A DNA stretch of 64,000 nucleotides from a bacterium (GTDB taxonomy: Bacteria; JAHJDO01), in contig JAUSPT010000032.1 of NCBI GenBank assembly GCA_030652805.1, positions 109,992 to 173,991 on the forward strand, in the 5' to 3' direction. A program made the translations under genes and the position numbers. The notes beneath the pieces are model-generated. The model was not told where the DNA came from. It did no database searches and worked only from the letters and a program-made list of their open reading frames with translations. Below are positions 32,931 through 58,628 of this stretch, piece after piece (the stretch's first letter is position 1; each line of letters opens with the position of its first letter).

Positions 32931-32935
32931 TTTCC

Positions 32936-32972: not shown

Positions 32973-32975
32973 ATC

Positions 32976-35530: not shown

Positions 35531-35533
35531 TCA

Positions 35534-36892: not shown

Positions 36893-36919
36893 GTTTTTTC
36901 CTCCTTGTTTTTGTTTTAA

Positions 36920-37750: not shown

Positions 37751-37768
37751 ATCTACCTCCCTTTTTTA

Positions 37769-39463: not shown

Positions 39464-39951
39464 TATAAGAGACTCGCTATTTCCCCTAACTGTTGTTTTA
39501 TCCACTTGATTATTTCATCCTTGGAGAAGCAGAACCCTAGAAAACGGCAGCTCCCCTTCACTGTAGTTCCTCCACCAAATATGGCTGATAAATAAGGTCC
39601 TGCTGGCACAGTATATGTTACATCCATCTTCGCGCTTCCTTTCGCCATCACATACGAGAGAAAACTTGCAAGGTAATTAGTTCCCGGGATAAAACTCATA
39701 TCCGGGAGCCCTGCTTCTCTTAACAAATCAAAGCTGGTATTGACATTTCCATGACCAAAGAATACAGCACCGGCTCCTCCGCCATCTCTCGTTTCCTTTA
39801 GAGCTCCTTCTCTGGCTGCTATGTAAACCTTTGATTGAGCCACCATAACCTTTCCAAAGTGAACAACAATCATCATAATGAGTATAAAAATCGGCAGGAC
39901 AATTGCTGCTTCTACTGCTGCCTGACCACTGTTAGATCTAATTAGCTTCAT
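39463..39951 (-). CDS. TadE/TadF-like minor pilin
   Basis: MKLIRSNSGQAAVEAAIVLPIFILIMMIVV (TadE N-terminal motif). The start at 39951 is 1 nt after the upstream stop. The track ORF extends to 39966. Confidence 0.78.
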   Translation of the reverse strand: MKLIRSNSGQAAVEAAIVLPIFILIMMIVVHFGKVMVAQSKVYIAAREGALKETRDGGGAGAVFFGHGNVNTSFDLLREAGLPDMSFIPGTNYLASFLSYVMAKGSAKMDVTYTVPAGPYLSAIFGGGTTVKGSCRFLGFCFSKDEIIKWIKQQLGEIASLL

Positions 39952-39952
39952 T

Positions 39953-40456
39953 CTAGTCCTCCACATTTATATTACAGCTTTGAGTAACTGGAAGATAATA
40001 TCTATCGCCATCCTGAATCCCAATTATTCTGCCAACCATGGGCATATTCAGTTTAAACTTGTATTTGACAGTAGTGGTATTACCCGATTGGCTAACTGTA
40101 GTATTAGATTGAGCATAAGAATACTGCTTAATTATTGTTGCTAGGTTCTGTGCCCAATCAGGAATGGGAATTTTTTCAAGAATTTCAGAAATTGCCGAAT
40201 CTAGAACCCCTCCCGAAGATTGACTGGAAATAGGTATCAGCGCAATGCTGGCAGCAAGTTTTGCTTTGTCCGCATCCTGATGCACAGAATATGAACGAGC
40301 TGCTGAAAAGGCAGCATAATTAGTTACTATATTGGCAGTTGCTATCAAAGCAAGCTGCATAATAGCCATGGCAAAGAGAATTAAAACAGGCATAACAATG
40401 ACAAATTCAACCATTGACTGGCCTCTGTTATTTATTCGCCTAAAGCATTTCTTCAT
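39953..40456 (-). CDS. TadE/TadF-like minor pilin
   Basis: NRGQSMVEFVIVMPVLILFAMAIMQLAL. Confidence 0.78.
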   Translation of the reverse strand: MKKCFRRINNRGQSMVEFVIVMPVLILFAMAIMQLALIATANIVTNYAAFSAARSYSVHQDADKAKLAASIALIPISSQSSGGVLDSAISEILEKIPIPDWAQNLATIIKQYSYAQSNTTVSQSGNTTTVKYKFKLNMPMVGRIIGIQDGDRYYLPVTQSCNINVED

Positions 40457-40956
40457 CTAAAAATCCATGCAATAAAGGTTCCAACACTCAGAGCCGCTCC
40501 ATAAGGAATCCTTTCACTGTTAGACAGCTTTAAAGCTTCCGTTTTTAACCCGGGCATAATAAAACTCAAAATAAGACGAAAAATATTTTTTAGCCCTCTC
40601 CAGAATGTCCCTTTCCATATCATTACCGCTATTGCCAGTATTCCGCCTGTCAGGATTCCATAAAAACAAGCATTCAAGATAAATGGATACCCTCCAACAG
40701 CTCCAACAGCAGCCATTAATTTAACGTCTCCTCCTCCTACTCCGCCAAAGACAAATACTATGGCAAAAACACAAAACCCAATAGCGAGCCCCAGCATACT
40801 GTTAACCAACCCGCCAACGCCATGATTCCAAACGTTAAGCAACAGCCCTACCGCCACAGCAGGAAAGGTTACACAATTGTATATCTTGTGTGTAATCAAG
40901 TCTGTAACCGCTGATACCAGCAAAAGCAATATTAGTAATATGTCTGAAAATGCCAT
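40453..40956 (-). CDS. cpaA: Prepilin peptidase CpaA/TadV (A24 family, no methyltransferase domain)
   Basis: 167 aa, polytopic. Two Asp contexts (SAVTDLITHKIYN and GVGGGDVKLMAAVG). Confidence 0.88.
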   Translation of the reverse strand: MAFSDILLILLLLVSAVTDLITHKIYNCVTFPAVAVGLLLNVWNHGVGGLVNSMLGLAIGFCVFAIVFVFGGVGGGDVKLMAAVGAVGGYPFILNACFYGILTGGILAIAVMIWKGTFWRGLKNIFRLILSFIMPGLKTEALKLSNSERIPYGAALSVGTFIAWIFR

Positions 40957-40964
40957 AAAGTTAA

Positions 40965-41165
40965 TTATTGCGCTGATTCTAAATCATCAGCTGCTTTTTC
41001 AACTTTTGCTGATAACTTGTCTCTAAAATACTGGAACGCAACTATAGCAGCAATGGCTATTAACACCACTATCAGAATATATTCTGTCATGCCCTGCCCT
41101 TCTTCTCCGAATATAATCCCTTTCATTAAGTTTTTAAGCTTCTTCATTTTGTCACCCCCTTTCAT
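40965..41165 (-). CDS. flp: Flp/Fap-family pilin 1
   Basis: EEG/QGMTEYILIVVLIAIAAIVAF carries the Flp processing motif G/xxxxEY. The real start is probably the internal MKKLKNL. Confidence 0.85.
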   Translation of the reverse strand: MKGGDKMKKLKNLMKGIIFGEEGQGMTEYILIVVLIAIAAIVAFQYFRDKLSAKVEKAADDLESAQ

Positions 41166-41169
41166 TCAT

Positions 41170-41349
41170 TTATGGAATAGGTAAACTAATAAGACTTGCG
41201 ATTCTATTGTAATAAGTTTTTAGCGCCTTACGAAACATCTCAAAACAACCTGCCAGACAAAGAACAGCTATTACTGTTACAAGAACATACTCTGTCATCG
41301 CTTGCCCTTTTTCGTCCAGCAACAAGTTTTTTAAACTCTGTACAAACAT
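41170..41349 (-). CDS. flp: Flp/Fap-family pilin 2 (59 aa, below the ORF-track length cut-off)
   Basis: Own translation: MFVQSLKNLLLDEKGQAMTEYVLVTVIAVLCLAGCFEMFRKALKTYYNRIASLISLPIP. It has the same G/Q[GA]MTEY motif as pilin 1. ATG at 41349 and stop at 41170-41172. Confidence 0.8.
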   Translation of the reverse strand: MFVQSLKNLLLDEKGQAMTEYVLVTVIAVLCLAGCFEMFRKALKTYYNRIASLISLPIP

Positions 41350-41355
41350 TAATTG

Positions 41356-42147
41356 CTACCTATAAGCTTCTACCAAAACAACTGTAATGTTATCAACTCC
41401 TCCAGCTTTATTAGCATAGTCTATCATTTCTTCTGCTGCTTTTGAAAGGTTATCTATATGTTTTTTTATAATATCCTCCATTGTCTTTCTTTCCAGCATA
41501 CCGCTCAGCCCATCGGAACATATGAGAAAAATATCTACAGGAACAATATCCTCTTCCTGTAGATCAACCTTGACCTCTTTCTCACTACCCAGAGCCCGTG
41601 TAATAACATTCTTCCAGCGATGCTGTTTGGCTTCCTCTTTCGTTATTACATTCTCTTTAAGTTGCTCATTAACCCATGAATGATCCTCTGTAATCTGCTT
41701 CAGCCTTCCATTTCTCATTAAATACACCCTGCTGTCGCCTACATGCACAACATACCCTTTCGCCTCAGCAATGGATAACCCTGCTATAGTTGTTCCCATT
41801 CCTTTAAGTTCAGGGTTAGAAAATGACATCTCATATATTTTCTTATTAGCAATTCGTACTGCGGTAAGGAGCTTATTAGCCTCAGGCGCTAGTTCTGGGT
41901 TCATCTCAAATGGCCAGGTAATATCATTGTCTTTGGCTGTGCGTTCAATAAAGGCCTTTATTAATTCGATAGATTTGCGACTTGCTACATCACCTGCTGC
42001 ATGCCCACCCATGCCATCAGCTACAAGATAAAGCTTCAGATCATCACTGACCAGAAAGCTATCTTCATTTAGCTTGCGCACTCTGCCTAAATCTGATAAG
42101 CCGTATGCTCTGAACTTCATCTCTAATTTTACTCCTGTAACTGCCAT
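41356..42147 (-). CDS. PP2C-family Ser/Thr phosphatase
   Basis: GRVRKLNEDSF, VADGMGGHAAG, GTT, LICSDGL, GGVDNITVVLV. Confidence 0.92.
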   Translation of the reverse strand: MAVTGVKLEMKFRAYGLSDLGRVRKLNEDSFLVSDDLKLYLVADGMGGHAAGDVASRKSIELIKAFIERTAKDNDITWPFEMNPELAPEANKLLTAVRIANKKIYEMSFSNPELKGMGTTIAGLSIAEAKGYVVHVGDSRVYLMRNGRLKQITEDHSWVNEQLKENVITKEEAKQHRWKNVITRALGSEKEVKVDLQEEDIVPVDIFLICSDGLSGMLERKTMEDIIKKHIDNLSKAAEEMIDYANKAGGVDNITVVLVEAYR

Positions 42148-42198: not shown

Positions 42199-43629
42199 CT
42201 AGCGCTTGAGCTTTCCGTTTGCTGTTTTGTCTAATCGGGCTACACATAGAAATTCTTTTGGAACCTTATATGAAGCTAATCTCTGATAGCAAAATTTGCG
42301 CACACTATTGATATCAAAATCTGTTTTTGCTTTATTTTGCAGAACGATCATTGCACAGGGAAGCTGCCCATACTGAGGATGGGTAATGCCATACACAAGA
42401 GACTCCTTGATGTCAGGATGCTGATTGAGAACTGATTCCACTTCATAGGGAAAGACTTTCATGCCGGCAAAATTAATGATATGTTTTTCTCTGCCAACAA
42501 GAAACAGAAAGCCTTCTTTATCAAGTCTAGCTAGATCCCCTGTCTTAAACCAGCCGTTATGCAATACCTGCTTTTTACTTTGCCATGGAGAAAAGTATGC
42601 ATCAAACATTCCTTTTCCTTTAAGATAAACTTCACCAATCCCCTTAGCATCAGCATTTACTATTTTCACTTCGTAATCTGGTAGAATTCTGCCTACTGAC
42701 TCTTGCTTCGTTTTATCCTCAGAACAATTGAGAAACGGCAGGCCCACTTCAATAATTCCATACGCTTCAGTCAGTTGAAAACCAAACTTTTTATGAAAAT
42801 CATTTGCTATATCAACAGGCAGCTTTACTGCTGTACACACAGCCATACGGATACGACTTAACATATGGGAAGAAAGCATATCCGATTTTGTCAGCATATG
42901 ATAATGGAAAGGTGAAGCGTATATAAATGTTCCTCTGTGGGTTTTCAATTTCTCAAGCAGTAATTCAGGGAATGCGCGGCTGCAGAGAATAATTGTTGCC
43001 CCACGCCGCAGGAAAAGCAGAATCGTTACTACAAAATGAAAACTCATGGAAAGAACCCATATCACTATATCATTTGAAGTGATATTTAACCCTTTATCTG
43101 CAGCATTGGTTCTTTGAATAATGGCTTCATGGGAAATTACTACTCCTTTGCTTACCCCGGTTGTGCCTGATGAAAACCGGATAAAAGCAGGATTTAATGT
43201 ATAATAATCCGCTGGAACCTGTTTCTTCGCTGCGCGTTGATATAGAAAAAACTTTCTTTCACACACACAATCAGAAAAAATTCGAAGGCTGCCATGTTTG
43301 ATACACCTTTCTTTATTAGAGAGCAAAGCATTCACATCAATTTTTTCCAGTATATCATCAACTTCATACATGGATAACGACGTAGATACTGGAACAATAA
43401 CTGCAGGTAAAGACAGTACAGCCAGACTAATAATAATATAATCAATACTATCTTCACATAGTAATGCTACACGTTGAGCTGGCTGAACTCCATATGACTT
43501 TAATTCATCTGTAAGTTTCTCTACAGAAGCAAACAACTCGCCATAAGAAACCTGTTTATTCCCGTCAATGACAGCAATTTTCTTCTGAAGCTTTTTTGTT
43601 TCGCTCTTTATTACATCTACAATATTCAT
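42199..43629 (-). CDS. Acyl-AMP/acyl-CoA ligase (ANL adenylating enzyme)
   Basis: FSSGTTGVSKGV (A3), YGIIE (A5), GWFKTGDLA (A7), GREKHIINFAGMKV (A8), and a C-terminal GKLKR lysine. Confidence 0.88.
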   Translation of the reverse strand: MNIVDVIKSETKKLQKKIAVIDGNKQVSYGELFASVEKLTDELKSYGVQPAQRVALLCEDSIDYIIISLAVLSLPAVIVPVSTSLSMYEVDDILEKIDVNALLSNKERCIKHGSLRIFSDCVCERKFFLYQRAAKKQVPADYYTLNPAFIRFSSGTTGVSKGVVISHEAIIQRTNAADKGLNITSNDIVIWVLSMSFHFVVTILLFLRRGATIILCSRAFPELLLEKLKTHRGTFIYASPFHYHMLTKSDMLSSHMLSRIRMAVCTAVKLPVDIANDFHKKFGFQLTEAYGIIEVGLPFLNCSEDKTKQESVGRILPDYEVKIVNADAKGIGEVYLKGKGMFDAYFSPWQSKKQVLHNGWFKTGDLARLDKEGFLFLVGREKHIINFAGMKVFPYEVESVLNQHPDIKESLVYGITHPQYGQLPCAMIVLQNKAKTDFDINSVRKFCYQRLASYKVPKEFLCVARLDKTANGKLKR

Positions 43630-44927
43630 AAGTCATCATCCCATATCTGCAATGGGGTGTCTTCTGTTCCCTCTGGGACAACAGGTGTTTCAGGATCGCT
43701 GCCGTCAAGATAGACGCCTTGTTGAATAAGCGATTTTCTCACTGCGGCAACAGCAATATGCCTAGGTTGGATGCTTTGTCGTGCCGCCAGTGATGCTGCG
43801 ACACCGGCAGCCTGCCCCGTGGCAAAGCATGGTACTATAAGACGCAAGGAGTTGTCGGCAAGATAGTCAGACGAAATACAACGTCCAGCAACAAGCAATC
43901 CGTCAACGTTCTTCGGAACAAGACATCGAAAAGGAATGTCATAGTTCAACCTTGGCGGATCGTAGAGTTTGTAGCCGAGAAGATACGAGCCCAATCGCGC
44001 AATTGAGTCTTCAAAATGTCGGCTTGATCTGAGGTCATCATCGGTCAGAGTGTATTCCCCTCGGATACGACGGCTCTGCCGTACCCCAAACTGCGGCAGT
44101 GTCTCTTTGATGCGCGCATTCTCCCAACCGGGCATATGAGTGCGCAGATAGTATAAGGAGCGAAAATAATCGCGGCGCATTTGTGTCTCTGCCTTACTAA
44201 CTTCCTCAGCATCTGTCACATCAACCCCTTGTAGATACCGATGACGGTCCAGCATGACACCTCCGTTCAGCCTGCTAGCTTCTGCCACAACTTTCAGGAA
44301 GTGTTCAGGGGACTTCTTCTTAAACACCGCAACTTTTGCGCAGTCTATGCCATCAACTGTTACGCCCAGCGTCACATCGTGAGTATCACTGTCACACTTG
44401 CATCCTGCGCGAAACGCAACATCTGCGTCAGCAGTGCAGTCTATTACAACCTTGGCAAGAATGGCCCTGCGGCCGCTCTTACTCTCGGTGAAGAAACCGC
44501 GAACGTATGCACCATCAGTGATTGGATCACACACCAACGTGTGCAGGAGCAACTCTGCTCCTGCTTCTTCCAGCATTTCTGCAGCCTGCCACTTAAAAAC
44601 CTCTGGGTCAACCGCGTAATCGCCACAGCGATTTGGACCTTGAATTGCGTCAAACGTCTCCATTCGCTTCCTGATATCCAAAGCAATACCGCCAGCTTTG
44701 GGACGAACTCCATCCCCCATACCAAACACCCAGAGAACGTGAGCGCCTGTAATCATCCCTCCAAGATATCCATATCGTTCAACGACGAGCGTTTTCGCTC
44801 CTTCACGCGCGGCAGCAATACCGGCAGCAATACCGGCAGGACCGCCTCCAGCAACAAGCACGTCAACTGTCCTCTCAACTGGAATGCGCTGTTGTGGTTC
44901 AACTTCAATATCGTTATTGTGCATCAT
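43626..44927 (-). CDS. FAD-dependent oxidoreductase (GG-motif FAD_oxidored type), compositionally foreign
   Basis: VDVLVAGGGPAGIAAGIAAAREGAKTLVVERYGYLGGM. GC is clearly higher than in the neighbours. Overlaps both neighbours by 4 nt. Confidence 0.82.
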   Translation of the reverse strand: MMHNNDIEVEPQQRIPVERTVDVLVAGGGPAGIAAGIAAAREGAKTLVVERYGYLGGMITGAHVLWVFGMGDGVRPKAGGIALDIRKRMETFDAIQGPNRCGDYAVDPEVFKWQAAEMLEEAGAELLLHTLVCDPITDGAYVRGFFTESKSGRRAILAKVVIDCTADADVAFRAGCKCDSDTHDVTLGVTVDGIDCAKVAVFKKKSPEHFLKVVAEASRLNGGVMLDRHRYLQGVDVTDAEEVSKAETQMRRDYFRSLYYLRTHMPGWENARIKETLPQFGVRQSRRIRGEYTLTDDDLRSSRHFEDSIARLGSYLLGYKLYDPPRLNYDIPFRCLVPKNVDGLLVAGRCISSDYLADNSLRLIVPCFATGQAAGVAASLAARQSIQPRHIAVAAVRKSLIQQGVYLDGSDPETPVVPEGTEDTPLQIWDDDL

Positions 44928-46249
44928 AGATTCTGTTCCTCCTCTTTTGCCTCTCCTTCTAAGAGAGTGTGAGTTAATACTCCTAGTCCAGAACGCAAAG
45001 TGTGTATAATTGAATCTATCTCATCCTTTTCCAACATCTCATCTAAATAGGAAAAGACCACATTTAGCTTGCCCTGAAACTGGTTGAAGAATATTCCAAG
45101 CCCCGGAGGAATTGGAACTCTGGGCATATGGAAAATATTATGGATTTTTTTTCCCATAAACATCGGAGAATCGTATGCAGATTCGCCAATATAGGAAAAA
45201 CAAAAAGAAGCAATCTGCCCTTTTAACGGCATCCGCATTAGATAACTTAAAACAGGTAAAGGTGCAATTCGCATCAAAAGACTTGCTTTCTCAATATCCG
45301 CAGGTAAGTCTGCCTTTATCTGATCGTAGATCTGCTGTTTAATTGATTGCAAAAGAACAGAAAAACTATCAGCCTCATTTGCTTTCACTCGAAGCAGGAA
45401 AAAGGACATATGATTAAAGAAAATCTCTTGATGTACCTTTTCTACTGGACGCGTATCAATAGACACAGGAATTATATAATCACCTGTGAGTATACCCCTT
45501 TTGAGAAAAATGCTGTGCAAAGCCTCCATGGAAATTGCCAATGCATACGGCATAAGCATTAAATAACCTGCTTTATTATATGCAGTTTCGATAATTGCAG
45601 ATGTCTGGCGTTTATCAAGCGAGATTATCTTAAATTTAAATCCCTGATTGTTAACCACTGAATGTAAAGGCAAAAAGCGGGATTTATTCTCTGACAATTG
45701 TACCAGCTTCCTATTTACACGCTTACCTGCTTCAAATTTTTCCTGCCACTTACATAGATGAGCTGGTTCTGTAAGAGAAATCCTCTGGGAATAATCCATA
45801 TTCAAGAATGCTTCAGCTCCTCTGACGTCAAACAAACAATGGTCAAACACTACCCCTAGAAAACTTGTTTCTCCCGTATGGACAAGATGAAATGCAAGAT
45901 GCTCCTTAATACTGTTAAAGGGCATGTTTACTCCTTGCTCCAGTGTAAAGAGCACTTTGCTAAATGTTGCATTATCATCAAGGCGGTAAGTCCTGATGTT
46001 CGGAGAGAGCATTTTATTATTGGAATAAATCTTCCAGTATGGAGCAAGGTTGTAATTCCGCATCGGTCTGCCATTTACAACCGGAAATTTTTTAATGAAT
46101 TTGTTCAGGCATTCCCGAAGTGTTGTCTCATCAAGCGTGCCTTTCAGTTGAAGAACAACCTGAAACATGTTCCCAACGCCAGTTTCCTTTTTGTTAATAT
46201 GGTTAATTGTATGAATGATCCAGTCAACACCAGTTAAATAGCGTTTCAT
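44924..46249 (-). CDS. Condensation/acyltransferase-like protein (HxxxD superfamily)
   Basis: 441 aa. VVFDHCLFDVRGAEAF holds an HxxxD motif in the position expected for C-domain or WS/DGAT-type acyltransferases. Sits between the ACP and FAD-enzyme genes. Confidence 0.5.
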   Translation of the reverse strand: MKRYLTGVDWIIHTINHINKKETGVGNMFQVVLQLKGTLDETTLRECLNKFIKKFPVVNGRPMRNYNLAPYWKIYSNNKMLSPNIRTYRLDDNATFSKVLFTLEQGVNMPFNSIKEHLAFHLVHTGETSFLGVVFDHCLFDVRGAEAFLNMDYSQRISLTEPAHLCKWQEKFEAGKRVNRKLVQLSENKSRFLPLHSVVNNQGFKFKIISLDKRQTSAIIETAYNKAGYLMLMPYALAISMEALHSIFLKRGILTGDYIIPVSIDTRPVEKVHQEIFFNHMSFFLLRVKANEADSFSVLLQSIKQQIYDQIKADLPADIEKASLLMRIAPLPVLSYLMRMPLKGQIASFCFSYIGESAYDSPMFMGKKIHNIFHMPRVPIPPGLGIFFNQFQGKLNVVFSYLDEMLEKDEIDSIIHTLRSGLGVLTHTLLEGEAKEEEQNL

Positions 46250-46250
46250 T

Positions 46251-46496
46251 CTAACTCATTCTGCTGATATATGACGCCAGCAAGTGGATGGTTTGAGAGT
46301 TTTCTCGTGTTAGTCCTGATTCCATTAACTTTAGATTAAATGTTTTTTCAATAAACACCAGAAGCTCCACAAAGCTAAATGAATCAACTCCTAGTGTGTG
46401 AAGAGGAGCATTTGAAGAAATTGTTGAAGAGTCTACATCTAATATTGTAGCAATCTCTTGGATCAGTGTTTCCTCGATATGTTTTACAGTCAACAT
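46251..46496 (-). CDS. Acyl carrier protein
   Basis: 81 aa with LGVDSFSFVEL (phosphopantetheine Ser in DS). Confidence 0.85.
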   Translation of the reverse strand: MLTVKHIEETLIQEIATILDVDSSTISSNAPLHTLGVDSFSFVELLVFIEKTFNLKLMESGLTRENSQTIHLLASYISRMS

Positions 46497-46511
46497 GCAG
46501 CTTGTATCCTT

Positions 46512-47552
46512 TTACACAGTCAATTTAATAACAGCTTTTTCTCCTCCACAATTATACCTAATACAACTGATTCTCCGTATTTGAGCAGGTTCAGTCTTTG
46601 TGCATAGATTTATATTGTAGGGATTATGGCTAACTAGGCATGCGTAGTGTAGCTGCTTTTTTAACATGAGAGCAGCAGCAGCACAATTAAAACTTGTTCC
46701 AGTCATCATACTGCCGAATATTGGCGAATACCCTGAGATGCAAACACCTGATTCTGCAGCCTTTTGATATTCTTTCTCGTCTCCTGCAATACCGTCGGCA
46801 TCAAGAATGAACATATCCGGTCTATTTTTTTCAACCTCTTTATCATTTAAAGAGATGGCTGTTATTTCACAATATTTCTTATGAGATTTCTCCAGTGTCA
46901 TCAGAAAGAATACACTTCCCTCTCCTGGTACTGCTACAGGCGTTTTTGAAAAATTAAATGGTTTGATTCTGCCATCTCCAGCAATTCGCAACTTTTGCCT
47001 GCAGATGTATTCCATAACTGTGCCGCATTCATCAACGCTTCCAACAAGAACATATTCACACCGTTTCTCATAAAGCCAGGCTCGCGCAAGGATAAGAGCC
47101 TGGTGAAACGAAAATGCAAACTGAGTAAGTGTAATGGTTGGGCCACGGCTATCTAACACAGATGTAATATAAGACGCTGCTGCATTATGGACAGAATGAG
47201 AAAATATGGTTGGAGAAGCATTCCTATCACCATATTCAAGCATATCATCCAGAAAGCGGAATGTTGTTACATGCGGACCAAATGCTGTTGAGACAATAAT
47301 ACCAAGAGAAGATTTCTTTTTATTAAAATTAATGCCACTATCCACTACAGCGTCACTGGCTGCTAATACTGCCATTTTACTGAATCTATCCGCACGACGT
47401 ATCCCGCCCAAAATTCTTTTGTCTGTGATTGATTCTTCCTTCACATGATAACCAGAATCTTCAGGCTTTATCCATCCATGCCTCAATGCGTCATCATAGC
47501 GGTTAATTCCCCGTCCCCCGCTAAAAACAACACCTATTCCAAAAATATTCAT
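46512..47552 (-). CDS. Beta-ketoacyl synthase-like protein lacking the active-site Cys (chain-length-factor-like partner)
   Basis: Thiolase-fold pattern (RRADRFSKMAVLAA, GIIVSTAFG). The Cys position reads TLTQFAFSFHQA and there are no HGT / GH motifs. Its start overlaps the stop of the upstream KS gene (47549-48673) by 4 nt. Confidence 0.7.
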   Translation of the reverse strand: MNIFGIGVVFSGGRGINRYDDALRHGWIKPEDSGYHVKEESITDKRILGGIRRADRFSKMAVLAASDAVVDSGINFNKKKSSLGIIVSTAFGPHVTTFRFLDDMLEYGDRNASPTIFSHSVHNAAASYITSVLDSRGPTITLTQFAFSFHQALILARAWLYEKRCEYVLVGSVDECGTVMEYICRQKLRIAGDGRIKPFNFSKTPVAVPGEGSVFFLMTLEKSHKKYCEITAISLNDKEVEKNRPDMFILDADGIAGDEKEYQKAAESGVCISGYSPIFGSMMTGTSFNCAAAALMLKKQLHYACLVSHNPYNINLCTKTEPAQIRRISCIRYNCGGEKAVIKLTV

Positions 47553-48673
47553 GCTCCTCTCCCAATAACAATCGCAGCATTGTTGCCGCCAAAGGCAAGG
47601 GACGTAGAAAGGGCAAAAGATCCGTGTATGCTCGTCTTCTCTCTAACCGGCGTTATAGGTATTTCATCATCCTGATTTACAAAACCAGCGCTTGCAGGTA
47701 TCCATCCTTCCAGAAGCGCAGCACCTGTAAAAACAGCTTCCAATCCTCCTGCGCCGCCAAGTGTATGCCCCGTAAATCCCTTTGTAGAAAGAACCTTAAT
47801 ATCCTTACCAAAAACCCTTGCTAGAACCATACCCTCAACTTTATCATTATCCCGGGTTGCAGTGCCGTGAGCATTAACAAAACAGACCTCTTGAGAACTA
47901 ATGCATGCTTCAGAAAGCGCTCTCTGAATCGCTGCTTCCAATCCTGTACCATCAGGTCTTGGAGCAGTAAGATGATAGGCGTCTGCTGAAGCGCCGTATC
48001 CAGCAAGATACAATCTAGGGGCATTGCCCGAGGCATTGCCTCTCTTACAAGCACATGCTTCTCTCTCAAGCACAAGAATTCCAGCACCTTCCCCTAAGTT
48101 TAATCCTTTACGATCTCTGTCAAATGGAGCGCATAATGATTCACTGACAATCCCAAGTGCCCCAAAACCGCATATAGGAATACGGTTCAATTCGTCTGCG
48201 CCACCGGCAATAGCGATATCACACTCTCCATTCCTTAACCAGGATAACGCTACTCCAATCGCATCAGCGCCTGAAGAACATGCATTAACCACAGTAACAC
48301 GTGGACCTTTTGCTCCTATAGTATTTGCAACAGCTTGGGCAAGGTTTCCTTTTAAAAATCGGTCGACAGAATCCATCGGGGCTTTTCCCGAACTCCTGTA
48401 CGAATGATAGAAGTCAACATCATTTAACTGGCTTGCCACAGTAGTCCCAAGACATACTCCTACACGAAAATCCTCAATGCGTTTTTTTAGTTCTGCCTTA
48501 TTTAGGGCTTCCTCTACTGCGCACAAAGCAAGACTTAAAGTGCTCATTCTGTGTTCAAAGACTGGTTTTTTATTTACTTGTCCGCGCTGAAATGTATCCA
48601 GTGTTTCTGTGAGATTTGTACCTGCAGCAGAAATCGCACCCATGCCTGTTATTATTATGTTTGTTTTCTCCAT
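47549..48673 (-). CDS. Beta-ketoacyl-ACP synthase (FabF/FabB-like, catalytically complete)
   Basis: VVNACSSGADAIG (Cys), VNAHGTATRDND (His), FTGHTLGGAGG (His). Confidence 0.9.
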   Translation of the reverse strand: MEKTNIIITGMGAISAAGTNLTETLDTFQRGQVNKKPVFEHRMSTLSLALCAVEEALNKAELKKRIEDFRVGVCLGTTVASQLNDVDFYHSYRSSGKAPMDSVDRFLKGNLAQAVANTIGAKGPRVTVVNACSSGADAIGVALSWLRNGECDIAIAGGADELNRIPICGFGALGIVSESLCAPFDRDRKGLNLGEGAGILVLEREACACKRGNASGNAPRLYLAGYGASADAYHLTAPRPDGTGLEAAIQRALSEACISSQEVCFVNAHGTATRDNDKVEGMVLARVFGKDIKVLSTKGFTGHTLGGAGGLEAVFTGAALLEGWIPASAGFVNQDDEIPITPVREKTSIHGSFALSTSLAFGGNNAAIVIGRGA

Positions 48674-48700
48674 GAAACTCCGTTGAGAGAAAATGCGAAT

Positions 48701-48982
48701 TTATGCTGCTGTATTCTCGTATATATATTGTGCCAGAGTGTCGATTGAATAAAATATTTTTCTGCCCTGATCCATATCTTTGATTTCTAACCCAAAATTC
48801 CGCTGCAATAGCACAACAATTTCTACTGCATCTAAAGAATCCAGTCCAAGTCCTTCGCCAAACAGAACCTCGTCATCTTTAATATCTTCAGGTTTTACAT
48901 TCTCTAATGATAGGCTGCTTACAAGCAGTTTTTTTAACTTGTTTCGTATTTCCTTCAATTCTTTTTGTTTCTGCTCTGCCAT
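48701..48982 (-). CDS. Acyl carrier protein
   Basis: 93 aa with GLGLDSLDAVEIVVLL. Confidence 0.88.
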   Translation of the reverse strand: MAEQKQKELKEIRNKLKKLLVSSLSLENVKPEDIKDDEVLFGEGLGLDSLDAVEIVVLLQRNFGLEIKDMDQGRKIFYSIDTLAQYIYENTAA

Positions 48983-49093
48983 TTAATCTTCTCCTATATT
49001 TAGCGGTATTCAACAAGCGATATCATATCCTCTTATTGCTCTTTTTTCAAGGAACAATTCCAACACGGTATAAGAGTGGATTTTTGGCAACCA

Positions 49094-49711
49094 TTAGAAT
49101 GGGAAACTGATTCCGATAATGATTTTGCTTGAATTAAGTGGTACGTTGGGTTGCTTCATGCCAGCGTTAGATATGTGATGAAATCTATATTCTAACACAA
49201 ATGAACGGCCTTTTCTGGTCTTGTAACTAAGTCCTAGTCCCGCTTGATAATTCCCGCAGATATTGGCGCCCATGCCAGGTATGTTCGCTTCCGTATAGAC
49301 AGGACCGCCGCCCACGAAGAAATATGGCATGTATCTTTGCGATGTCTTCAGCGTCCAGGATGAAAGAAAGTTCAAGCCAAAAATCCGGCCATCATCAGGC
49401 TTAATAAGATAAGACACAGGTAGTTCTATCAGGAAGTTATGACTTCCGCGGTACCAGTCACGTCCAGTATCTTTGAGTTTTCGCCTATATCGCAGAATTA
49501 CATCCACTGTCTCAACATGTTCACGAGTTTTGCCGAGTCCCGGATGCGTGGTACTGTAGCCGCTCAGCAACATCCATGATTCATCAGTTTGATCCGTATC
49601 GGCAAAGGCAACGTTAATTGCAACAACTGTGAACAGCAGTATCAGGCAGATTAATTTCATGGCGCACACCAAATCACTGAAGAGCATCTTTGTTCTGTTC
49701 ATTCTTCCCAT
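49094..49711 (-). CDS. Acyloxyacyl hydrolase / PagL-like outer-membrane lipid A deacylase
   Basis: Signal peptide, beta-barrel periodicity, a C-terminal YRFHHISNAG motif (His/Ser pair of the PagL family), and a terminal aromatic F. Confidence 0.72.
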   Translation of the reverse strand: MGRMNRTKMLFSDLVCAMKLICLILLFTVVAINVAFADTDQTDESWMLLSGYSTTHPGLGKTREHVETVDVILRYRRKLKDTGRDWYRGSHNFLIELPVSYLIKPDDGRIFGLNFLSSWTLKTSQRYMPYFFVGGGPVYTEANIPGMGANICGNYQAGLGLSYKTRKGRSFVLEYRFHHISNAGMKQPNVPLNSSKIIIGISFPF

Positions 49712-50619
49712 ACATCACGAAATAAAAAATATTGATAAGGGTGTTTGTGTGTATATGCTTCAAGCAACGCGGCAAATTTTTGAACCCATTGCTGTAGTTG
49801 ATGGTGTTTATCCTTTTCACTAATATAGCATGGATACAGCACATTAGATACATCAACAATGTACTGATAAGTAGATACTTTCTCTGACAATAGAACAACC
49901 ACCGGACATCCTGCCGCTGCTGCAATTGTAAAGCCGCCGTATGGGAACCAGGCTTTCTCTCCAAGAAATGAAACTTCTACGGCTTTAAACCCATATCTGC
50001 GGTCACCCATAATGGACACAATATGTTTTTCCTTTAATTTATTCATGATTTCAACAATTCCACCAAGATCTTGTTCAGGAGAAATAATCTTGATATGGTT
50101 CTGTTCCCTGCTGATACGCAGTGAACTTTGCACTGCAGGGTTATCTTCCGGACGCATAACAAGATACACCGTTTTTTCCAGTTTTTTTAATGCTGTCATA
50201 GCGACCTGCCAGTTACCAACATGAGCAGTTAGTAAAATTATTCCATGAGGAGAATTCTGAATCAGGGACATCAATTGTTCATATCCATGTAATTGGATAT
50301 CAAATATTTCCTGCCCTGAAACAATAGCGTATCGATCAATAAGCTGTTTTCCCTGACTTACAAACAATCTATATACGTGTCTCAGCCTTTTTACAAAACC
50401 ATGTGATGGAAACCTTCTGTTAATATACGCCAAAGCTCCACAAACAGCTGCTTGGTCAAACAGCACATAATAGATACAGACAATATATAATAATCCATAC
50501 GCTCCTCTTAACCCAAAAAAGCGCAGAGAAATCCTAAAAAACCAGAATCCAAGGGCATTCCCTCTTTTTTTTGCTTCAATTTTTCGAGATGCTTTAGCTT
50601 TTTTCATTTTTACCATCAA
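49699..50619 (-). CDS. LpxL/HtrB-family lysophospholipid/lipid A acyltransferase
   Basis: N-terminal TM, IILLTAHVGNWQV (H-x-x-N-W motif region), IMGDR. Confidence 0.82.
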   Translation of the reverse strand: MMVKMKKAKASRKIEAKKRGNALGFWFFRISLRFFGLRGAYGLLYIVCIYYVLFDQAAVCGALAYINRRFPSHGFVKRLRHVYRLFVSQGKQLIDRYAIVSGQEIFDIQLHGYEQLMSLIQNSPHGIILLTAHVGNWQVAMTALKKLEKTVYLVMRPEDNPAVQSSLRISREQNHIKIISPEQDLGGIVEIMNKLKEKHIVSIMGDRRYGFKAVEVSFLGEKAWFPYGGFTIAAAAGCPVVVLLSEKVSTYQYIVDVSNVLYPCYISEKDKHHQLQQWVQKFAALLEAYTHKHPYQYFLFRDVWEE

Positions 50620-50755
50620 CTTTTTTTGCGTTCAAGTCTGTTTTTTCTATGTAAAGATTATCAAGCGGGCTTTTGACCCCAAACTGATATAATAAGCATA
50701 ACTACACAAAGTGGCAAAATCAAGCCTAAAACTCGTATTTTCGCACAAAAATCCT

Positions 50756-50809
50756 TTGACACATATAAAATTATTCGCTATCTTGAACACAATAAAGGTA
50801 ACTGTTCAA
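50756..50809 (+). promoter_or_regulatory. Candidate sigma70-type promoter plus inverted-repeat operator upstream of hcp
   Basis: TTGACA (50756-61), 17 nt, TATCTT (50779-84). IR TTGAACA-N13-TGTTCAA (50783-50809) overlaps the -10 element and downstream sequence. Confidence 0.35.
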
Positions 50810-50858
50810 TGATGTACGTTATATATGGCTTAACACAAAATCGAAAGGAGGAACGATC

Positions 50859-52502
50859 ATGTTTTGTTTTCAATGTCAGGAAACGGCTAAAAACCAAGGC
50901 TGCACCGTAAAAGGCGTGTGCGGAAAACCCGAGGAGACCGCGGACCTGCAGGATCTGCTCATTTACGTGTGTAAAGGAATCTCGATCTATGGTGAAAAGT
51001 TAAAGGAAATGGGCACTATGGGCAAGAACGCAGCCCACTTCGTGTGCAAGGCACTTTTTACCACCATCACCAATGTGGCATGGGACGATGATGTCGTCAT
51101 CGGCCGGATCAAGGAGGGTTTCAGGGTTCGGGACGCAGTCAGGGAAAAGGCCGGAGCCGCCATGTCCGGCGCGCTTCCGGATTGCGCCACCTGGTTCTCA
51201 GAGGACAAGGAGGCCATCATGGCCAAGGCCATGTCCGATGAAGTGCGCATCACCACCGCTGAAAACGAGGACGTGCGCTCCCTCAGAGAGCTGCTCATCA
51301 TCGGCTGCAAGGGAATCGCAGCTTATGCCGATCATGCCGCGATTCTTGGTCATGAGAAGGATGATATCTACGGCTTCCTCATGGAGGCCCTGGCATCCAC
51401 CACCAAGGATCTTTCAACGGATGAGATGATCGCCATGGTCATGAAGGCAGGGGAGATGGCTGTAAATACTATGGCCCTTCTGGATGAGGCCAATACAACT
51501 GCCTATGGCAATCCCGAGATCACGGAGGTCAACATCGGCGTCAGAAACAATCCCGGAATCCTGATCTCCGGCCACGACTTGAAAGACATGGAAGAACTGC
51601 TCAGGCAAACCAAAGACGGGTGTGATGTTTACACCCACGGGGAAATGCTGCCGGCCAACTACTATCCGGCCTTTAAGAAGTATGACCATTTCGTGGGCAA
51701 CTACGGCGGGTCGTGGTGGCATCAGAACAAGGAATTCGAATCCTTTAACGGCCCCATCATTCTGACAACCAACTGCCTGATTCCCATCAAAAAGGAAAAC
51801 ACCTATCTGAAACGGCTCTTTACTACCGGCGTCGTCAACTATCCCGGGGCCAAACACATCGCGGACAGGCCGGAAGGCGGGACAAAGGATTTCTCCCCGG
51901 TCGTGGCGCTGGCGAAAACATGCAAGTCACCGGAAGAGATAGAATCTGGCAAGATCGTTGGTGGGTTCGCCCATAACCAGGTCCTGGCCCTGGCTGACAA
52001 AGTGATCGACGCCGTTAAGTCAGGAGCCATCAAACGCTTTGTTGTCATGGCCGGGTGCGACGGCCGCCAAAAAGCCCGAAGTTATTTTACTGAAGTGGCC
52101 GAGAAGCTGCCCGAAGACACGGTAATTCTCACCGCCGGATGCGCCAAATACCGCTACAACAAGCTGGCACTGGGTGACATCGGCGGTATTCCCCGCGTGC
52201 TGGACGCCGGTCAGTGCAACGACTCCTACTCCCTGGCGGTGATCGCCTTGAAACTCAAGGAAGCATTCGGACTGAACGACATCAATGAGCTACCCGTCTC
52301 TTACGACATCGCCTGGTACGAGCAAAAAGCAGTGACCGTGTTGCTGGCCCTGCTGTTTCTCGGCGTCAAAGGAATTCGCCTGGGTCCCACATTGCCGGCC
52401 TTCCTGTCTCCCAATGTGGCCAAGGTCCTGGTGGAAAAATTCGACATCAAACCTATTGGAACCGTGCAGGATGATATTGTGGCAATGATGAAAGGAGAAT
52501 AA
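50859..52502 (+). CDS. hcp: Hydroxylamine reductase / hybrid-cluster protein
   Basis: [23 protein letters not shown] (N-terminal Cys cluster). 547 aa with conserved blocks throughout. RBS aaaggagg. GC is much higher than the window average. Confidence 0.95.
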
Positions 52503-52777: not shown

Positions 52778-54367
52778 ATGATACAGGCGAATAATCAAGT
52801 TCCGGACAGGTGTGATGTTGTAGTCATCGGAGCAGGGGCAGGTGGACTCACCGCAGCAGGGCTTCTCTCAAGGGTTGGTCTTCAAACAGTAGTTCTTGAG
52901 ACTCAGCCACAGCCGGGGGGATACCTGGCAGGTTTTCAGCGACAGGGCTTTCAGTTCAACACTTCCATCCAATGGCTCAATCAATGCGGTCCCGGCGGAT
53001 TCGTCTACAACATCTGGCGTCATTTAGGCGGCGAGTTTCCAACCTGCGCACCGTTGACTCGCATACACAGATATAAAAGCGATTCGTTCGACTATTTGCT
53101 GAGTTCCAATCCTATCGACTTACAGGATTGCCTTATCAAGGACTTTCCTGATGATGAGAGCGGTATCAGAGCTTTTTTCAAGGATGGGGAAAGACTTGGA
53201 CAGCGGCTGAATGTCCTGAACAGCAGGACAATGGCGAAAGAGACCATGCCATTCTTTGAAAGAGTTATTCGCAACTTACAAATGCTGTTTTGGGCAATTC
53301 CTGTCGCTAAATACGTGATGAGCCCTGTCGAGAAAGGGCTGCGCCGCTATTTCAGTACGGAGGGTGCTCAAAAGATATTCTGCAGTCAAGAATCCTTTAT
53401 GTCCGTTATGGTGCCTATCGCTTGGGCATTCGCCGGAAATTTTCAAACTTGTCCCAAAGGAGGAAGTCGCACACTGGCTTTATGGCTGTGTGAGAGAATC
53501 AGATCTGCCGGGTCGAAAGTATTGCTGAACCAGCACGTGGAAAGAGTGCTGTTAAACGCTAGAAAAGAAGCGACCGGTGTATTACTGGCAGACGGAAGTT
53601 CTCTGAGAGCTCGATACGTGATTGCAGCCTGCGACGTACAGATGCTCTATGAAAAGATGCTGCCGGACGGCTGTATTCCGGTACGGATGCGAAAAGCACT
53701 GCATAATGCCGATATTTATCATTCCAGCTTCAGCATATTTCTGGGACTGGATTGCGATGCTTCTTCTTTGGGATTCGGAGAAGAAGTATTGAATCTCACT
53801 AGGAGCGATGTATCACGTGAAGATCACATGAGTGGTGACCCACATCGCACGATCATGGTCGTCATCGCGCCTTCAGTTCGTGATTCTTCTCTGGCACCGG
53901 AAGGCAAGGGAACCCTTATGATACATTGTCCGGCGTATCTCGATTACGAAGACAATTGGAGAACCGGCAAGGGGCTGGCGAGGGGCGAGCCCTACAGAGC
54001 ATTGAAAAGAAAGTTTGCCGACATCCTGCTGGCCCGGATTGAGAAAACCTTCGCTCCCGGGCTGAGGAAGCACATAGAGGTGATGGAGATTGCAACACCT
54101 GTAACATACTGGCGATATACGGGCAACACCAAGGGAAGCATTTCAGGGATTAAACCAACGGGAAGAAATATCAGAATCAGTGTAGCACGTTACAAAACGC
54201 CTGTGAAGAATTTATTGTTGGGAGGTCATTGTGCAGAATACGGCGGGGGTGTTCCAATGGCTGTAAAGGCCGGTGCGAATGCTAGTCTCATCGTCATGAA
54301 AGACATGAAAAGAGCGGCTTACGATGAACTGAAAGACGTAATAAACGGCGTAGAAAGGCACCACTGA
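52778..54367 (+). CDS. NAD(P)/FAD-dependent oxidoreductase of the phytoene desaturase (CrtI)-like family
   Basis: DVVVIGAGAGGLTAAGLLSRVGLQTVVLE.....GG (Rossmann dinucleotide motif). 529 aa with a C-terminal GG....G..GV motif. Confidence 0.82.
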   Translation: MIQANNQVPDRCDVVVIGAGAGGLTAAGLLSRVGLQTVVLETQPQPGGYLAGFQRQGFQFNTSIQWLNQCGPGGFVYNIWRHLGGEFPTCAPLTRIHRYKSDSFDYLLSSNPIDLQDCLIKDFPDDESGIRAFFKDGERLGQRLNVLNSRTMAKETMPFFERVIRNLQMLFWAIPVAKYVMSPVEKGLRRYFSTEGAQKIFCSQESFMSVMVPIAWAFAGNFQTCPKGGSRTLALWLCERIRSAGSKVLLNQHVERVLLNARKEATGVLLADGSSLRARYVIAACDVQMLYEKMLPDGCIPVRMRKALHNADIYHSSFSIFLGLDCDASSLGFGEEVLNLTRSDVSREDHMSGDPHRTIMVVIAPSVRDSSLAPEGKGTLMIHCPAYLDYEDNWRTGKGLARGEPYRALKRKFADILLARIEKTFAPGLRKHIEVMEIATPVTYWRYTGNTKGSISGIKPTGRNIRISVARYKTPVKNLLLGGHCAEYGGGVPMAVKAGANASLIVMKDMKRAAYDELKDVINGVERHH

Positions 54368-54463: not shown

Positions 54464-54646
54464 ATGTCTATACTACAGGTAGATAATAGTAGTGAAAAAA
54501 GAGAAATGGAGTTTGAACTGGACTACTTGAAAAAGCTCTCTATTGGTGAACGAATGCAAATGATGCTTCAAAAATCTAAAGAGATGGCAAAAATTCTTAG
54601 AAGAAATGAAGATAGAAAAACTACTTTCATTACTCAGAGACAATAA
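54464..54646 (+). CDS. Small 60-aa protein, possible partner or antitoxin of the downstream nucleotidyltransferase-fold protein
   Basis: RBS gaaggagatgttATG. Charged helical sequence. Overlaps the next ORF by 41 nt. Confidence 0.4.
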   Translation: MSILQVDNSSEKREMEFELDYLKKLSIGERMQMMLQKSKEMAKILRRNEDRKTTFITQRQ

Positions 54647-55055: not shown

Positions 55056-55197
55056 CAGTTTCTATTCTGTAATTCCTACAATAACTACTAATATCGGCGC
55101 AGCAATAAGAGAATAAAAGAGGGCTCAAATCTTTTTTTGCATGTATTTGCAAAATATTGCTTGTATTTGCTTAATTTTTCTGCTAGAATCTTGAATT

Positions 55198-58613: not shown

Positions 58614-58628
58614 TATTTATCATCCTTA

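Follow-up and report, generated by a model that had tools for sequence, protein, structure and literature searches.

A compact nine-gene operon that may attach an acyl chain to an envelope lipid, and its relation to a gene cluster family of anaerobic diderm bacteria

A compact block of lipid-type genes

A block of nine co-directional genes was analyzed on a 64,000-nucleotide stretch of bacterial DNA (GenBank assembly GCA_030652805.1, contig JAUSPT010000032.1, positions 109,992 to 173,991; GTDB lineage JAHJDO01), which is referred to in its full length as the window. The block runs from position 50619 to position 42199 of the minus strand and encodes an acyltransferase, a PagL-like protein, two acyl carrier proteins (ACP1 and ACP2), a ketosynthase (KS) with a partner resembling a chain length factor (CLF), a condensation-family protein, a flavoenzyme and a ligase. 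We hold, with slightly better than even confidence, that these genes form one operon whose products would build an acyl chain on dedicated carriers and install it on an envelope lipid, and that the operon belongs, in reduced form, to a horizontally mobile cluster family of anaerobic diderms.

An earlier note on this DNA had listed nine co-directional genes of these domain types. All nine open reading frames (ORFs) were found where it had placed them, and an independent gene call on the source contig (Logan SRR13727525; NCBI Q7J67_03335) returned the same nine genes. Eight of the nine ORFs scored above the Pfam gathering threshold, the exception being gene 7. Gene 1 (49699-50619) encodes an LpxL-family acyltransferase that matched Lip_A_acyltrans (PF03279; 61.5 bits against a cutoff of 22.3), and gene 2 (49094-49711) encodes a PagL-like protein that matched PagL (PF09411; 60.7 bits against 23). 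These are followed by the genes for ACP1 (gene 3; 48701-48982; PP-binding), the KS (gene 4; 47549-48673; N and C domains of ketoacyl-synt), the CLF-like partner (gene 5; 46512-47552; N domain of ketoacyl-synt only), ACP2 (gene 6; 46251-46496; PP-binding and ACP_SdgA_C), a standalone condensation-family (C-family) protein with an invariant DH137xxxD141 motif (gene 7; 44924-46249), a PF12831 flavoenzyme (gene 8; 43626-44927; FAD_oxidored, 300.7 bits) and an AMP-forming ligase (gene 9; 42199-43629; AMP-binding and AMP-binding_C).

The spacings from gene 1 to gene 9 are -13, 111, 27, -4, 15, 1, -4 and -4 nt, with the 4-nt overlaps joining KS to CLF, C-family protein to flavoenzyme and flavoenzyme to ligase. 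Such packing into a single compact unit is far more than chance would produce. No NCBIfam equivalog, including those for FabF, AcpP and LpxL, was above its cutoff for any of the nine. The lack of a ketoreductase (KR), dehydratase (DH), thioesterase or exporter, pointed out in the earlier note, was borne out in the flanks and ORFs that were scanned, and Pfam detected no FabZ or hotdog-fold match in the operon or its flanks (the ORFs at 10104-13818 and 21323-24630 were screened with cluster-gene queries only, not with Pfam).

The divergent intergenic region at 50620-50858, between the operon and a hybrid-cluster protein gene (hcp) on the opposite strand, is the sole plausible location for an operon promoter. 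A sigma-70-like match (10/12) is present there on the minus strand at 50717-50689, although promoter-site counts were no higher than in shuffled sequence.

The count of nine as the full set was probably one short. A phytoene-desaturase-like flavoenzyme gene (PF01593; Amino_oxidase, 67.6 bits) at 52778-54367 on the plus strand, about 2 kb upstream of the operon, had been overlooked and is probably an accessory member of it, with hcp in between. Homologs of this PF01593 gene were found near the cluster in 10 loci, the window included. In the closest relative, locus L007, the gene directly adjoins the acyltransferase gene in divergent orientation and its product has 94% amino acid identity to the window protein.

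A reduced member of a cross-phylum cluster family

Homologs of the gene 7 protein formed 386 clusters in a 90% database, all unnamed or annotated 'NRPS condensation-like', and 304 clusters at 50% identity (E <= 1e-30) in a library of 1.84 billion proteins; the plasmid collection contained none. Among the best 150 of the 304, no protein was longer than 471 aa, indicating that none of these is embedded in a megasynthase. Identities to the family members that were aligned or fetched as loci ranged from 39% to 89%. The protein is encoded by 105 loci in GTDB species genomes, 80 of which were fetched and surveyed for gene order with phmmer. The fetched loci came from Desulfobacterales and other Thermodesulfobacteriota, Nitrospirota/Thermodesulfovibrionia, Omnitrophota, Geobacteraceae, Planctomycetia, Verrucomicrobiota, Kiritimatiellae, Victivallales and others. 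One and the same gene order was present in at least 80 species-level genomes of at least eight phyla, and the distribution was patchy.

With optional genes in brackets, the family order begins (thioesterase)-KS3-unk223-rSAM_a-rSAM_b-GT2-acyltransferase-ACP1-KS-CLF-(unk228) and continues ACP2-C-family-flavoenzyme-(rSAM_c)-ligase-(PagL-like)-(polysaccharide deacetylase). The typical form thus has three B12-binding radical S-adenosylmethionine (radical-SAM) enzymes, a GT2 glycosyltransferase and a second KS (KS3) with a half-size partner. That partner, unk223, is a half-size protein with a KS N domain, located between KS3 and rSAM_a in about 20 loci (L002, L013, L018 and others); by analogy with ApeC and ApeO, it is probably the short partner of KS3. 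A second conserved protein, unk228, lies between CLF and ACP2, has about 210 aa, carries a GMSKKAV..GYPP motif and has an N terminus that reads as a signal peptide; it had no Pfam or PDB match.

Frequencies were determined from 35 loci covered completely on both sides, with the window kept apart and a radical-SAM gene scored when at least one B12-binding radical-SAM gene lay within 10 kb. ACP2, the C-family protein and the flavoenzyme were present in all 35 loci (100%), as was at least one B12-radical-SAM gene (35/35, 100%), and the ligase was present in 34 (97%). Lower frequencies were observed for KS plus CLF (86%), ACP1 (80%), GT2 (71%), the acyltransferase (69%) and the PagL-like gene (31%). 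The ACP2-C-family-flavoenzyme-ligase unit was retained in the 5 of 35 loci in which KS, CLF and ACP1 were absent (in four loci lacking KS/CLF, namely L031, L032, L046 and L077, the ORF calls around the cluster were noisy). No KR or DH occurred among the gene families recurring in 86 related loci.

A homolog search of the 64-kb window detected no radical-SAM, GT2 or KS3 gene. The window was the only complete locus without a radical-SAM gene, as against all 35 of the others, which indicates that it is a reduced variant. In the earlier note, the absence of a KR, DH, thioesterase and exporter was taken to point to a product other than that of aryl polyene (APE) clusters, for example an unusual acyl chain; what that proposal had not included was that the block belongs, in reduced form, to a widespread syntenic family.

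Replacement of the flavoenzyme and selection on the reduced form

Locus L007 has 89 to 92% nucleotide identity to the window across the operon and around the flavoenzyme slot. The window flavoenzyme itself, however, shared no more than 25% identity with its positional counterpart in L007, and its scores against the native flavoenzymes of other GTDB loci did not exceed 128 bits, compared with 990 bits when matched to itself in L001, the locus on the source contig. A protein of the same superfamily (PF12831/DAO) nevertheless fills the slot that follows the C-family gene. The closest relatives of the window protein (65 to 76% identity) were encoded among GH123, GH2 and GH106 genes in other genomes, and the gene has a GC content of 51%, compared with about 36 to 46% for the other eight cluster genes. 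From these sequence comparisons we conclude that the flavoenzyme is a xenolog, a recent foreign ORF-for-ORF replacement of the native paralog. The junctions of the swap lie exactly at the gene 7 stop codon and the ligase start, and both 4-nt overlaps were kept; at the first junction TGA became TTA, so that gene 7 gained 18 C-terminal residues. The swap is a clean natural example of in situ gene displacement inside an operon. A sequence search of the PDB gave generic flavoprotein matches only, and a structural model (pLDDT 85) had a generic two-domain flavoprotein fold, with a TM score of about 0.4 to any solved flavoprotein.

The reduced form is not confined to the window. All nine genes, the swapped flavoenzyme included, recur in locus L091 (GCA_018812485.1), and this arrangement was also found on two further metagenome contigs. 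The ratio of nonsynonymous to synonymous substitution rates (dN/dS) between the window and L091 was 0.04 to 0.29 over all nine genes, including 0.26 for the swapped flavoenzyme. Between the window and L007 it was 0.12 to 0.25 for eight genes (the swapped flavoenzyme not being comparable), similar to the values for neighboring pilus genes. All nine genes are under purifying selection. As a second genome shares the reduced form and dN/dS is low, this form is likely to be functional. The dS values against L091 were mosaic, at 0.047 for the flavoenzyme and 0.09 for the ligase as opposed to 0.29 to 0.37 for the acyltransferase, both ACPs and gene 7, a pattern that fits recent spread of the swapped segment by recombination.

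These data bear on the possibility that the operon is a decaying remnant, left productless by loss of the radical-SAM/GT2 part and of the native flavoenzyme. Decay would explain why radical-SAM genes are found in all other complete loci but not in the window, why L007 retains rSAM_a, rSAM_b and GT2, why a foreign paralog from a carbohydrate context occupies the flavoenzyme slot and why the KS has a deletion in its N-terminal region. On the other hand, none of the nine ORFs is disrupted and the catalytic residues are retained, the low dN/dS holds between two genomes with the reduced form and extends to the swapped gene, and the swap preserved the start/stop overlaps and, hence, translational coupling. 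Furthermore, the missing genes could be located on another part of the 184-kb contig or of the genome. A remnant is therefore unlikely in our estimation.

Two observations concern DNA that is present or absent in these relatives. The ACP1-KS spacer is 27 nt in the window, and an insertion at this point in L091 (2603-2736) is 83% identical to a 134-nt AT-rich stretch at 12115-12248 of the window; this stretch is single copy in the window and may be a small mobile intergenic element. The hcp gene (50859-52502, plus strand) has a GC content of 54% and a GC3 of 0.68 in a region of about 38 to 40% GC, and L007 has no gene at this position; hcp appears to have been inserted recently from a foreign source, and a 240-bp divergent promoter region is now common to it and the lipid operon.

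The ketosynthase pair and its carrier proteins

The KS residues Cys132, His269, Lys298 and His303 were invariant in 52 orthologs, while about 21 residues near the N terminus are missing from the window KS and the L010 KS relative to other orthologs. The partner is a full-length protein of 346 aa with Ala at the Cys position, a position that varies among 57 orthologs; the first active-site His is replaced by Asp in 55 of the 57 and the second by Ser in 54. Judged by these residues, the KS is active and the partner is catalytically dead and CLF-like, so that a complete KS with a Cys-less partner, as originally proposed, was upheld.

In a search of the PDB, the KS matched 9s5h_B best (1.5e-54), followed by FabF proteins (e-53 to e-49) and, lower down, by ApeO (8.6e-47 for 6qsp, and 2.2e-43), the ishigamide protein Iga11 (7e-45) and the act KS (1e-32). 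The best match of the partner was 9s5h_C, a weak one (2.5e-5), ahead of ApeC (1.6e-3). The best matches of the KS and CLF are hence two different chains of one solved heterodimer. As chain C has Val at the Cys position, which is the residue reported at that position in amxFabFmut of anammox bacteria, 9s5h is probably the amxFabF heterodimer of a 2026 preprint (bioRxiv 10.64898/2026.05.19.726425), an identity that was inferred and not confirmed from the PDB code.

ACP1 was the sole protein among the nine to pass any NCBIfam cutoff (PRK09184; 77 bits against 70), and its best PDB match was ApeE of Acinetobacter baumannii (9LS6; E of 2.3e-11). It has a glycine-rich loop, GEGLGLDS, and a GxGxGxxS pattern was present in 44 of 47 ACP1 orthologs but in none of 82 ACP2 proteins. 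By sequence, ACP1 is an ApeE-like carrier protein. ACP2 has a GVDS motif and always lies directly upstream of the C-family gene in the family, with a spacer of 1 nt in the window. The suggestion of an APE-like core was thus sustained by the likeness of ACP1 to ApeE and by the presence of a KS/CLF pair, a ligase of the acyl-ACP type and a membrane acyltransferase. It had not been noticed that the KS/CLF pair is at least as close to 9s5h and FabF as to ApeO and ApeC.

The condensation-family protein and the ligase

No Pfam family, PF00668 included, matched gene 7 at E <= 0.01, although a few homologs carry a precomputed PF00668 hit. The motif of the protein is D-H137-C-L-F-D141-V-R-G, in which H137 and D141 are invariant. 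Compared with HHxxxDG, the second His and the Asp are kept, while the first His is Asp throughout the family. The fold is two-lobed and of the chloramphenicol acetyltransferase (CAT) type, with the active-site motif at the lobe interface. It is closest to AzeD (PDB 8S6L), at 13% sequence identity, and is also similar to WS/DGAT, a starter C domain and PapA5. AzeD, on which the class of standalone C-family dehydratases ('C_standalone') was founded (bioRxiv 10.64898/2026.07.17.738954), varies from HHxxxDG in a similar way. Its substrate is, however, a free bicyclic carbamate in a nonribosomal peptide synthetase (NRPS) pathway, whereas gene 7 is placed between an ACP and a flavoenzyme gene in an operon that resembles fatty acid synthase or polyketide synthase systems.

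An assignment of gene 7 as a condensation-like HxxxD acyltransferase was retained for the superfamily fold and for H137/D141, but is tempered by a fold nearest to that of a dehydratase. Acyl transfer to an alcohol or amine is slightly favored, on balance, as the reaction. Dehydration of a beta-hydroxy intermediate, for which AzeD would be the precedent, is distinctly less probable yet deserves consideration; by this analogy the protein may be the source of the 'missing' DH instead of an acyltransferase. That it performs some other reaction is improbable.

The ligase, as read from its translation, has an SFHF A4 motif, with His and not the Asp of amino acid adenylation domains, and retains the Lys of the C-terminal GKLKR motif. 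Its best PDB matches were malonyl-CoA synthetase, MenE and oxalyl-CoA synthetase. It is probably an enzyme of the acyl/aryl-acid type that loads a carrier protein. An NRPS-like reading of the ligase, ACP2 and C-family protein as an amino-acid-specific A-PCP-C set was ruled out by the A4 His.

The acyltransferase and the PagL-like protein

The LpxL-like label of the acyltransferase was correct at the level of PF03279 but not of its motif or its scores. The protein fell below all of the NCBIfam LpxL and PatA equivalog cutoffs (at best 56.8 bits against 248), and its motif, H133-x-G-N-W-Q, invariant in 39 orthologs, is not the HX4(D/E) of LpxL and LpxM. An N-terminal hydrophobic stretch reads, by eye from the translation, as a membrane anchor. 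From a comparison of the start region with L007 and L091, translation probably begins at the ATG near 50607.

The PagL-like protein was aligned to Pseudomonas aeruginosa PagL (2erv) over HxSNAG..N, in which H179 and S181 correspond to H126 and S128 of PagL. The Pfam family, the HxSN motif and a 14-residue spacing are shared with PagL. His179, Ser181 and Asn193 were invariant in 16 orthologs. We take this His-Ser-Asn triad to be of the OMPLA type, presumably equivalent to Ser144-His142-Asn156 of OMPLA. The N terminus reads by eye as a signal peptide (...VAINVAFA/D), and translation likely starts at the ATG near 49660, so that the protein would have 188 aa, the length of the L007 and L091 orthologs. 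The sequence predicts an outer-membrane esterase; unlike PagL and OMPLA, however, it is encoded inside a biosynthetic operon. The name of PagL-like deacylase given in the earlier note is supported by PF09411 and the His-x-Ser pair, with the reservation that Asn replaces a catalytic-site Glu, as discussed below.

A proposed pathway to an envelope lipid

A sequence of chemical steps and a type of product were inferred from the observed domains, catalytic residues, compactness, synteny, selection, radical-SAM/GT2 loss and flavoenzyme swap. The ligase would adenylate a carboxylic acid starter, other than an alpha-amino acid, and load it onto a carrier protein. The heterodimer of the KS and its dead partner would then extend the starter with malonyl-ACP. 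As neither a KR nor a DH is encoded in the cluster, the chain would either remain beta-keto after one or a few rounds or be reduced by housekeeping FabG, FabZ and FabI. The flavoenzyme, possibly along with the PF01593 enzyme, would oxidize or desaturate the ACP-bound chain, and the C-family protein would either transfer the chain to a hydroxyl or amine, as do WS/DGAT and PapA5, or dehydrate a beta-hydroxy intermediate, as does AzeD. At the inner membrane, the LpxL-family enzyme could off-load the finished acyl group from the ACP, the acceptor being a membrane glycolipid or a lipid A-type molecule, and the PagL-like barrel could later trim or retransfer ester-linked chains in the outer membrane.

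The genome encodes ADP-heptose enzymes (an apparent split HldE and GmhB) and two secretins, which together with the PagL-like barrel suggest a diderm with a lipopolysaccharide-type envelope. An envelope destination, as had been put forward, is also plausible from the apparent signal peptide of the PagL-like protein and the anchor stretch of the acyltransferase.

A number of observations weigh against this pathway. In the acyltransferase, Gln occupies the position of the acidic residue of LpxL and LpxM, and in the PagL-like protein Asn replaces Glu140 of PagL at the same 14-residue spacing; the activities of both may, therefore, differ from those of their namesakes. The relatives of the flavoenzyme are found in carbohydrate loci, so that the native reaction may not be performed. 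With no radical-SAM, GT2 or KS3 homolog in the window, the pathway may be incomplete there or may be completed by genes beyond the 64 kb. The indications for the carrier of the starter conflict: persistence of the ACP2-C-family-flavoenzyme-ligase unit without KS, CLF and ACP1 would place it on ACP2, while the resemblance of ACP1 to ApeE, the starter ACP loaded by ApeH, would by analogy place it on ACP1. A scan for promoters and terminators gave counts equal to the shuffled expectation and was uninformative.

What the analysis provides is a coherent family with an invariant core, a KR/DH-less character and a naturally minimized nine-gene version under selection. Surveys of metagenomes from anoxic habitats have repeatedly applied the label 'ladderane' or 'aryl polyene' to clusters of this general type. 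Should the product turn out to be an envelope lipid, sulfate reducers, Nitrospirota and Omnitrophota in sediments could be traced by it as a new lipid biomarker, and the cluster could offer a handle on KS/CLF chemistry that is common to the unsolved ladderane pathway.

Flanking genes and other features of the window

Both immediate flanks are unrelated to the operon, with hcp upstream on the opposite strand and a PP2C phosphatase (Stp1 equivalog) and a Tad pilus locus downstream. About 200 bp of the intergenic region at 50620-50858, next to the acyltransferase gene, is common to the window and L091 but not to L007. In L091, a GH43 fragment is present upstream, in the hcp position. A simple model in which insertion of hcp accounts for the upstream rearrangement was partly withdrawn, as L091 shares the 200 bp with the window yet has the GH43 fragment and no hcp.

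In L007 the order is rSAM_a, rSAM_b, GT2, the divergent PF01593 gene and then the acyltransferase. Beyond the PF01593 gene, this synteny is replaced in the window by genes at 54606-57615 (plus strand) for a DUF6036/DUF2204 nucleotidyltransferase, a patatin-like phospholipase and a GNA1162-like lipoprotein with SH3 and LysM domains, in the position held in L007 by GT2, rSAM_b and rSAM_a. The phospholipase is a second lipid hydrolase near the cluster, a placement that may or may not be coincidental. Farther along, on the minus strand, a 3-dehydroquinate synthase II gene (PF01959) adjoins one for a DeoC/LacD-family aldolase at 57624-59426, an archaeal-type shikimate entry in a bacterium, and genes for a PfkB-type kinase, a cytidylyltransferase-like protein and a HAD phosphatase follow one another at 61446-63485, resembling a split HldE plus GmhB.

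The Tad pilus locus (26312-42147, minus strand) encodes a prepilin peptidase, TadE-like and RcpC/CpaB-like proteins and a secretin, with CpaF, TadB and TadC recognized by eye. It is interleaved with genes for FHA-domain proteins, a Ser/Thr kinase with NHL-like repeats and the Stp1-type PP2C phosphatase, the last of which is 100% identical to the L007 protein, compared with 85 to 97% for its neighbors. A separate set of type II secretion system/type IV pilus-like genes is located at 14607-21314 (minus strand) and includes a 622-aa fusion with a GspG domain. At 24700-26180 (minus strand), a DNA methyltransferase-like ORF (DPPY, by eye) and a small ORF are a candidate type II restriction-modification pair. 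The histidinol dehydrogenase gene at 8820-10046 (minus strand) encodes a protein with relatives at 81 to 90% identity, the next being at 55% or less (Clostridia, Nitrospirota). No Rfam match was detected in the window.

Comparison with known systems

No characterized pathway is orthologous to the nine-gene block. Such an orthology, which would have contradicted the earlier note, was not found, and literature searches on PagL and aryl polyenes, on ladderanes in Desulfobacterota, Nitrospirota and Geobacter, and on Desulfotalea retrieved no characterization of the cluster. Three known systems share part of the machinery and define alternative products.

The first is the cispentacin and coronafacic acid machinery (AmcB, AmcF-AmcG and AmcH), which resembles the block in having a ligase-loaded ACP, a KS with a noncatalytic partner and a possible single nonreducing extension. 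The operon could on this model make a small released or secreted metabolite or signal, in which a short acid on an ACP is extended once by the KS/CLF and then amidated or esterified by the C-family protein. The absence of a KR and DH fits a single nonreducing extension, the best solved relatives of the ligase activate the small dicarboxylic acids malonate, o-succinylbenzoate and oxalate, and matches to NCBIfam AmcB (about 42 bits for both ACPs), AmcF (216 bits against 325) and AmcG (27 against 80) were obtained, though all of these were below cutoff. The partner is 346 aa long compared with the 157 positions of the AmcG model, equivalents of AmcC, AmcD and AmcE are absent, and membrane and outer-membrane enzymes are attached: the LpxL-family gene, with its apparent anchor, and the PagL-like gene are tightly linked in the operon and recur in the family. 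Typical family members, moreover, add GT2 and a secreted small protein, and no exporter is present. A small metabolite is thus, like decay, an improbable explanation, and an envelope lipid is still preferred.

The second is an APE or flexirubin-type pigment cluster, of which the block would be a divergent form. APE clusters, such as those of Escherichia coli CFT073 (apeA-R), Xenorhabdus and A. baumannii, are defined by KS (apeO/R), ACP (apeE/F), CLF (apeC), DH (apeI/P), KR (apeQ) and transporter (apeM) genes; ApeE is a starter ACP loaded by ApeH, and the polyene is attached to a GalNAc-phosphate-glycerolipid by ApeD and ApeJ. The block has in common with them a KS and dead partner, two ACPs (one of them resembling ApeE and above the PRK09184 cutoff), a ligase that activates an acid, and a membrane acyltransferase, as well as an apparent envelope destination. 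The ligase is, compared with the ApeH-type acyl-ACP synthetase, an ANL ligase with an acyl/aryl-type A4 His. Relatives of the block also carry a glycosyltransferase and, in the wider family, a second KS with a half-size partner like ApeO/ApeC. However, the block has no ApeK thioesterase, and the DH (ApeI/P), KR (ApeQ), ApeM resistance-nodulation-division (RND) transporter and LolA/LolB-like proteins (ApeL/N) are absent from the scanned ORFs of the window and are not among the recurrent families around the cluster (the family flanks were not scanned gene by gene). The C-family protein, PF12831 flavoenzyme and PagL-like barrel, and the B12-radical-SAM enzymes of the relatives, are off the APE gene list. 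For the KS, ApeO was no closer a relative than FabF, the scores to FabF and 9s5h_B being higher, and neither ApeO nor ApeC was the best PDB match of the pair. An APE product is accordingly very unlikely.

The third system is the ladderane pathway. Anammox Cluster I is listed as containing amxACP, amxFabZ, amxFabF2/amxFabFmut, a phytoene-dehydrogenase homolog and a B12-radical-SAM enzyme. That the block makes ladderane lipids, or represents a genuine non-anammox ortholog of the anammox cluster, might be argued from the best matches of KS and CLF to the two chains of 9s5h, whose dead chain has Val as in amxFabFmut, from the phytoene-desaturase-like gene nearby and the B12-radical-SAM genes of the relatives, which are Cluster I parts, and from 'ladderane' clusters called by antiSMASH in Desulfobacterota, Omnitrophota and other phyla. 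The window, however, has neither a radical-SAM gene nor a FabZ variant, the CLF match is weak (E of 2.5e-5) and 9s5h is itself no more than probably the anammox pair. Rattray 2009 (PMC2649909) describes similar gene sets, without ladderanes, in Desulfotalea, Geobacter and Pelobacter, and the text consulted mentions no condensation-like protein; the anammox ligase is described as phenylacetyl-CoA-ligase-like. Reports of ladderanes are confined to anammox bacteria, none having been detected in Desulfotalea in spite of its similar genes. We regard this alternative as scarcely probable. Least credible of all is a chance adjacency of separate housekeeping fatty acid synthase and lipid A genes: FabF-like KS, ACP, LpxL-like and PagL-like domains do occur in primary metabolism too, but no NCBIfam equivalog cutoff for FabF, AcpP or LpxL was reached, the KS partner is dead, genes overlap, the order is conserved across phyla with a patchy distribution, and FabD, FabG, FabZ, FabI and FabH are all missing from the block, so that the separate units envisaged in the earlier note as a refutation are contradicted.

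The preferred reading, of an operon for an envelope lipid, leaves a likeness to anammox Cluster I in the KS/dead-KS heterodimer, the dedicated ACP, the phytoene-desaturase-like flavoenzyme nearby and, in relatives, the B12-radical-SAM enzymes; both sets occur in anaerobes and the product is uncharacterized in both. They differ in the FabZ variant and radical-SAM gene absent from the window, in the ligase, which is a standard ANL enzyme in the block and phenylacetyl-CoA-ligase-like in anammox bacteria, and in the C-family, LpxL-like and PagL-like genes, which do not appear in the list of parts given for Cluster I. The two toolkits thus overlap in part. There is a tentative case, which we put well short of even confidence, for reading all of this jointly: the family would be an undescribed cross-phylum pathway of anaerobic diderms in which an acyl chain is built on a KS/CLF-ACP system without its own KR or DH, tailored by B12-radical-SAM enzymes and a flavoenzyme and anchored on an envelope glycolipid or lipid A, and it may be a non-anammox sister of the ladderane machinery. 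If so, the window and L091 would hold a minimal version, free of radical-SAM and glycosyltransferase genes, that makes the untailored scaffold, and the nine genes would be an entry point to the chemistry.

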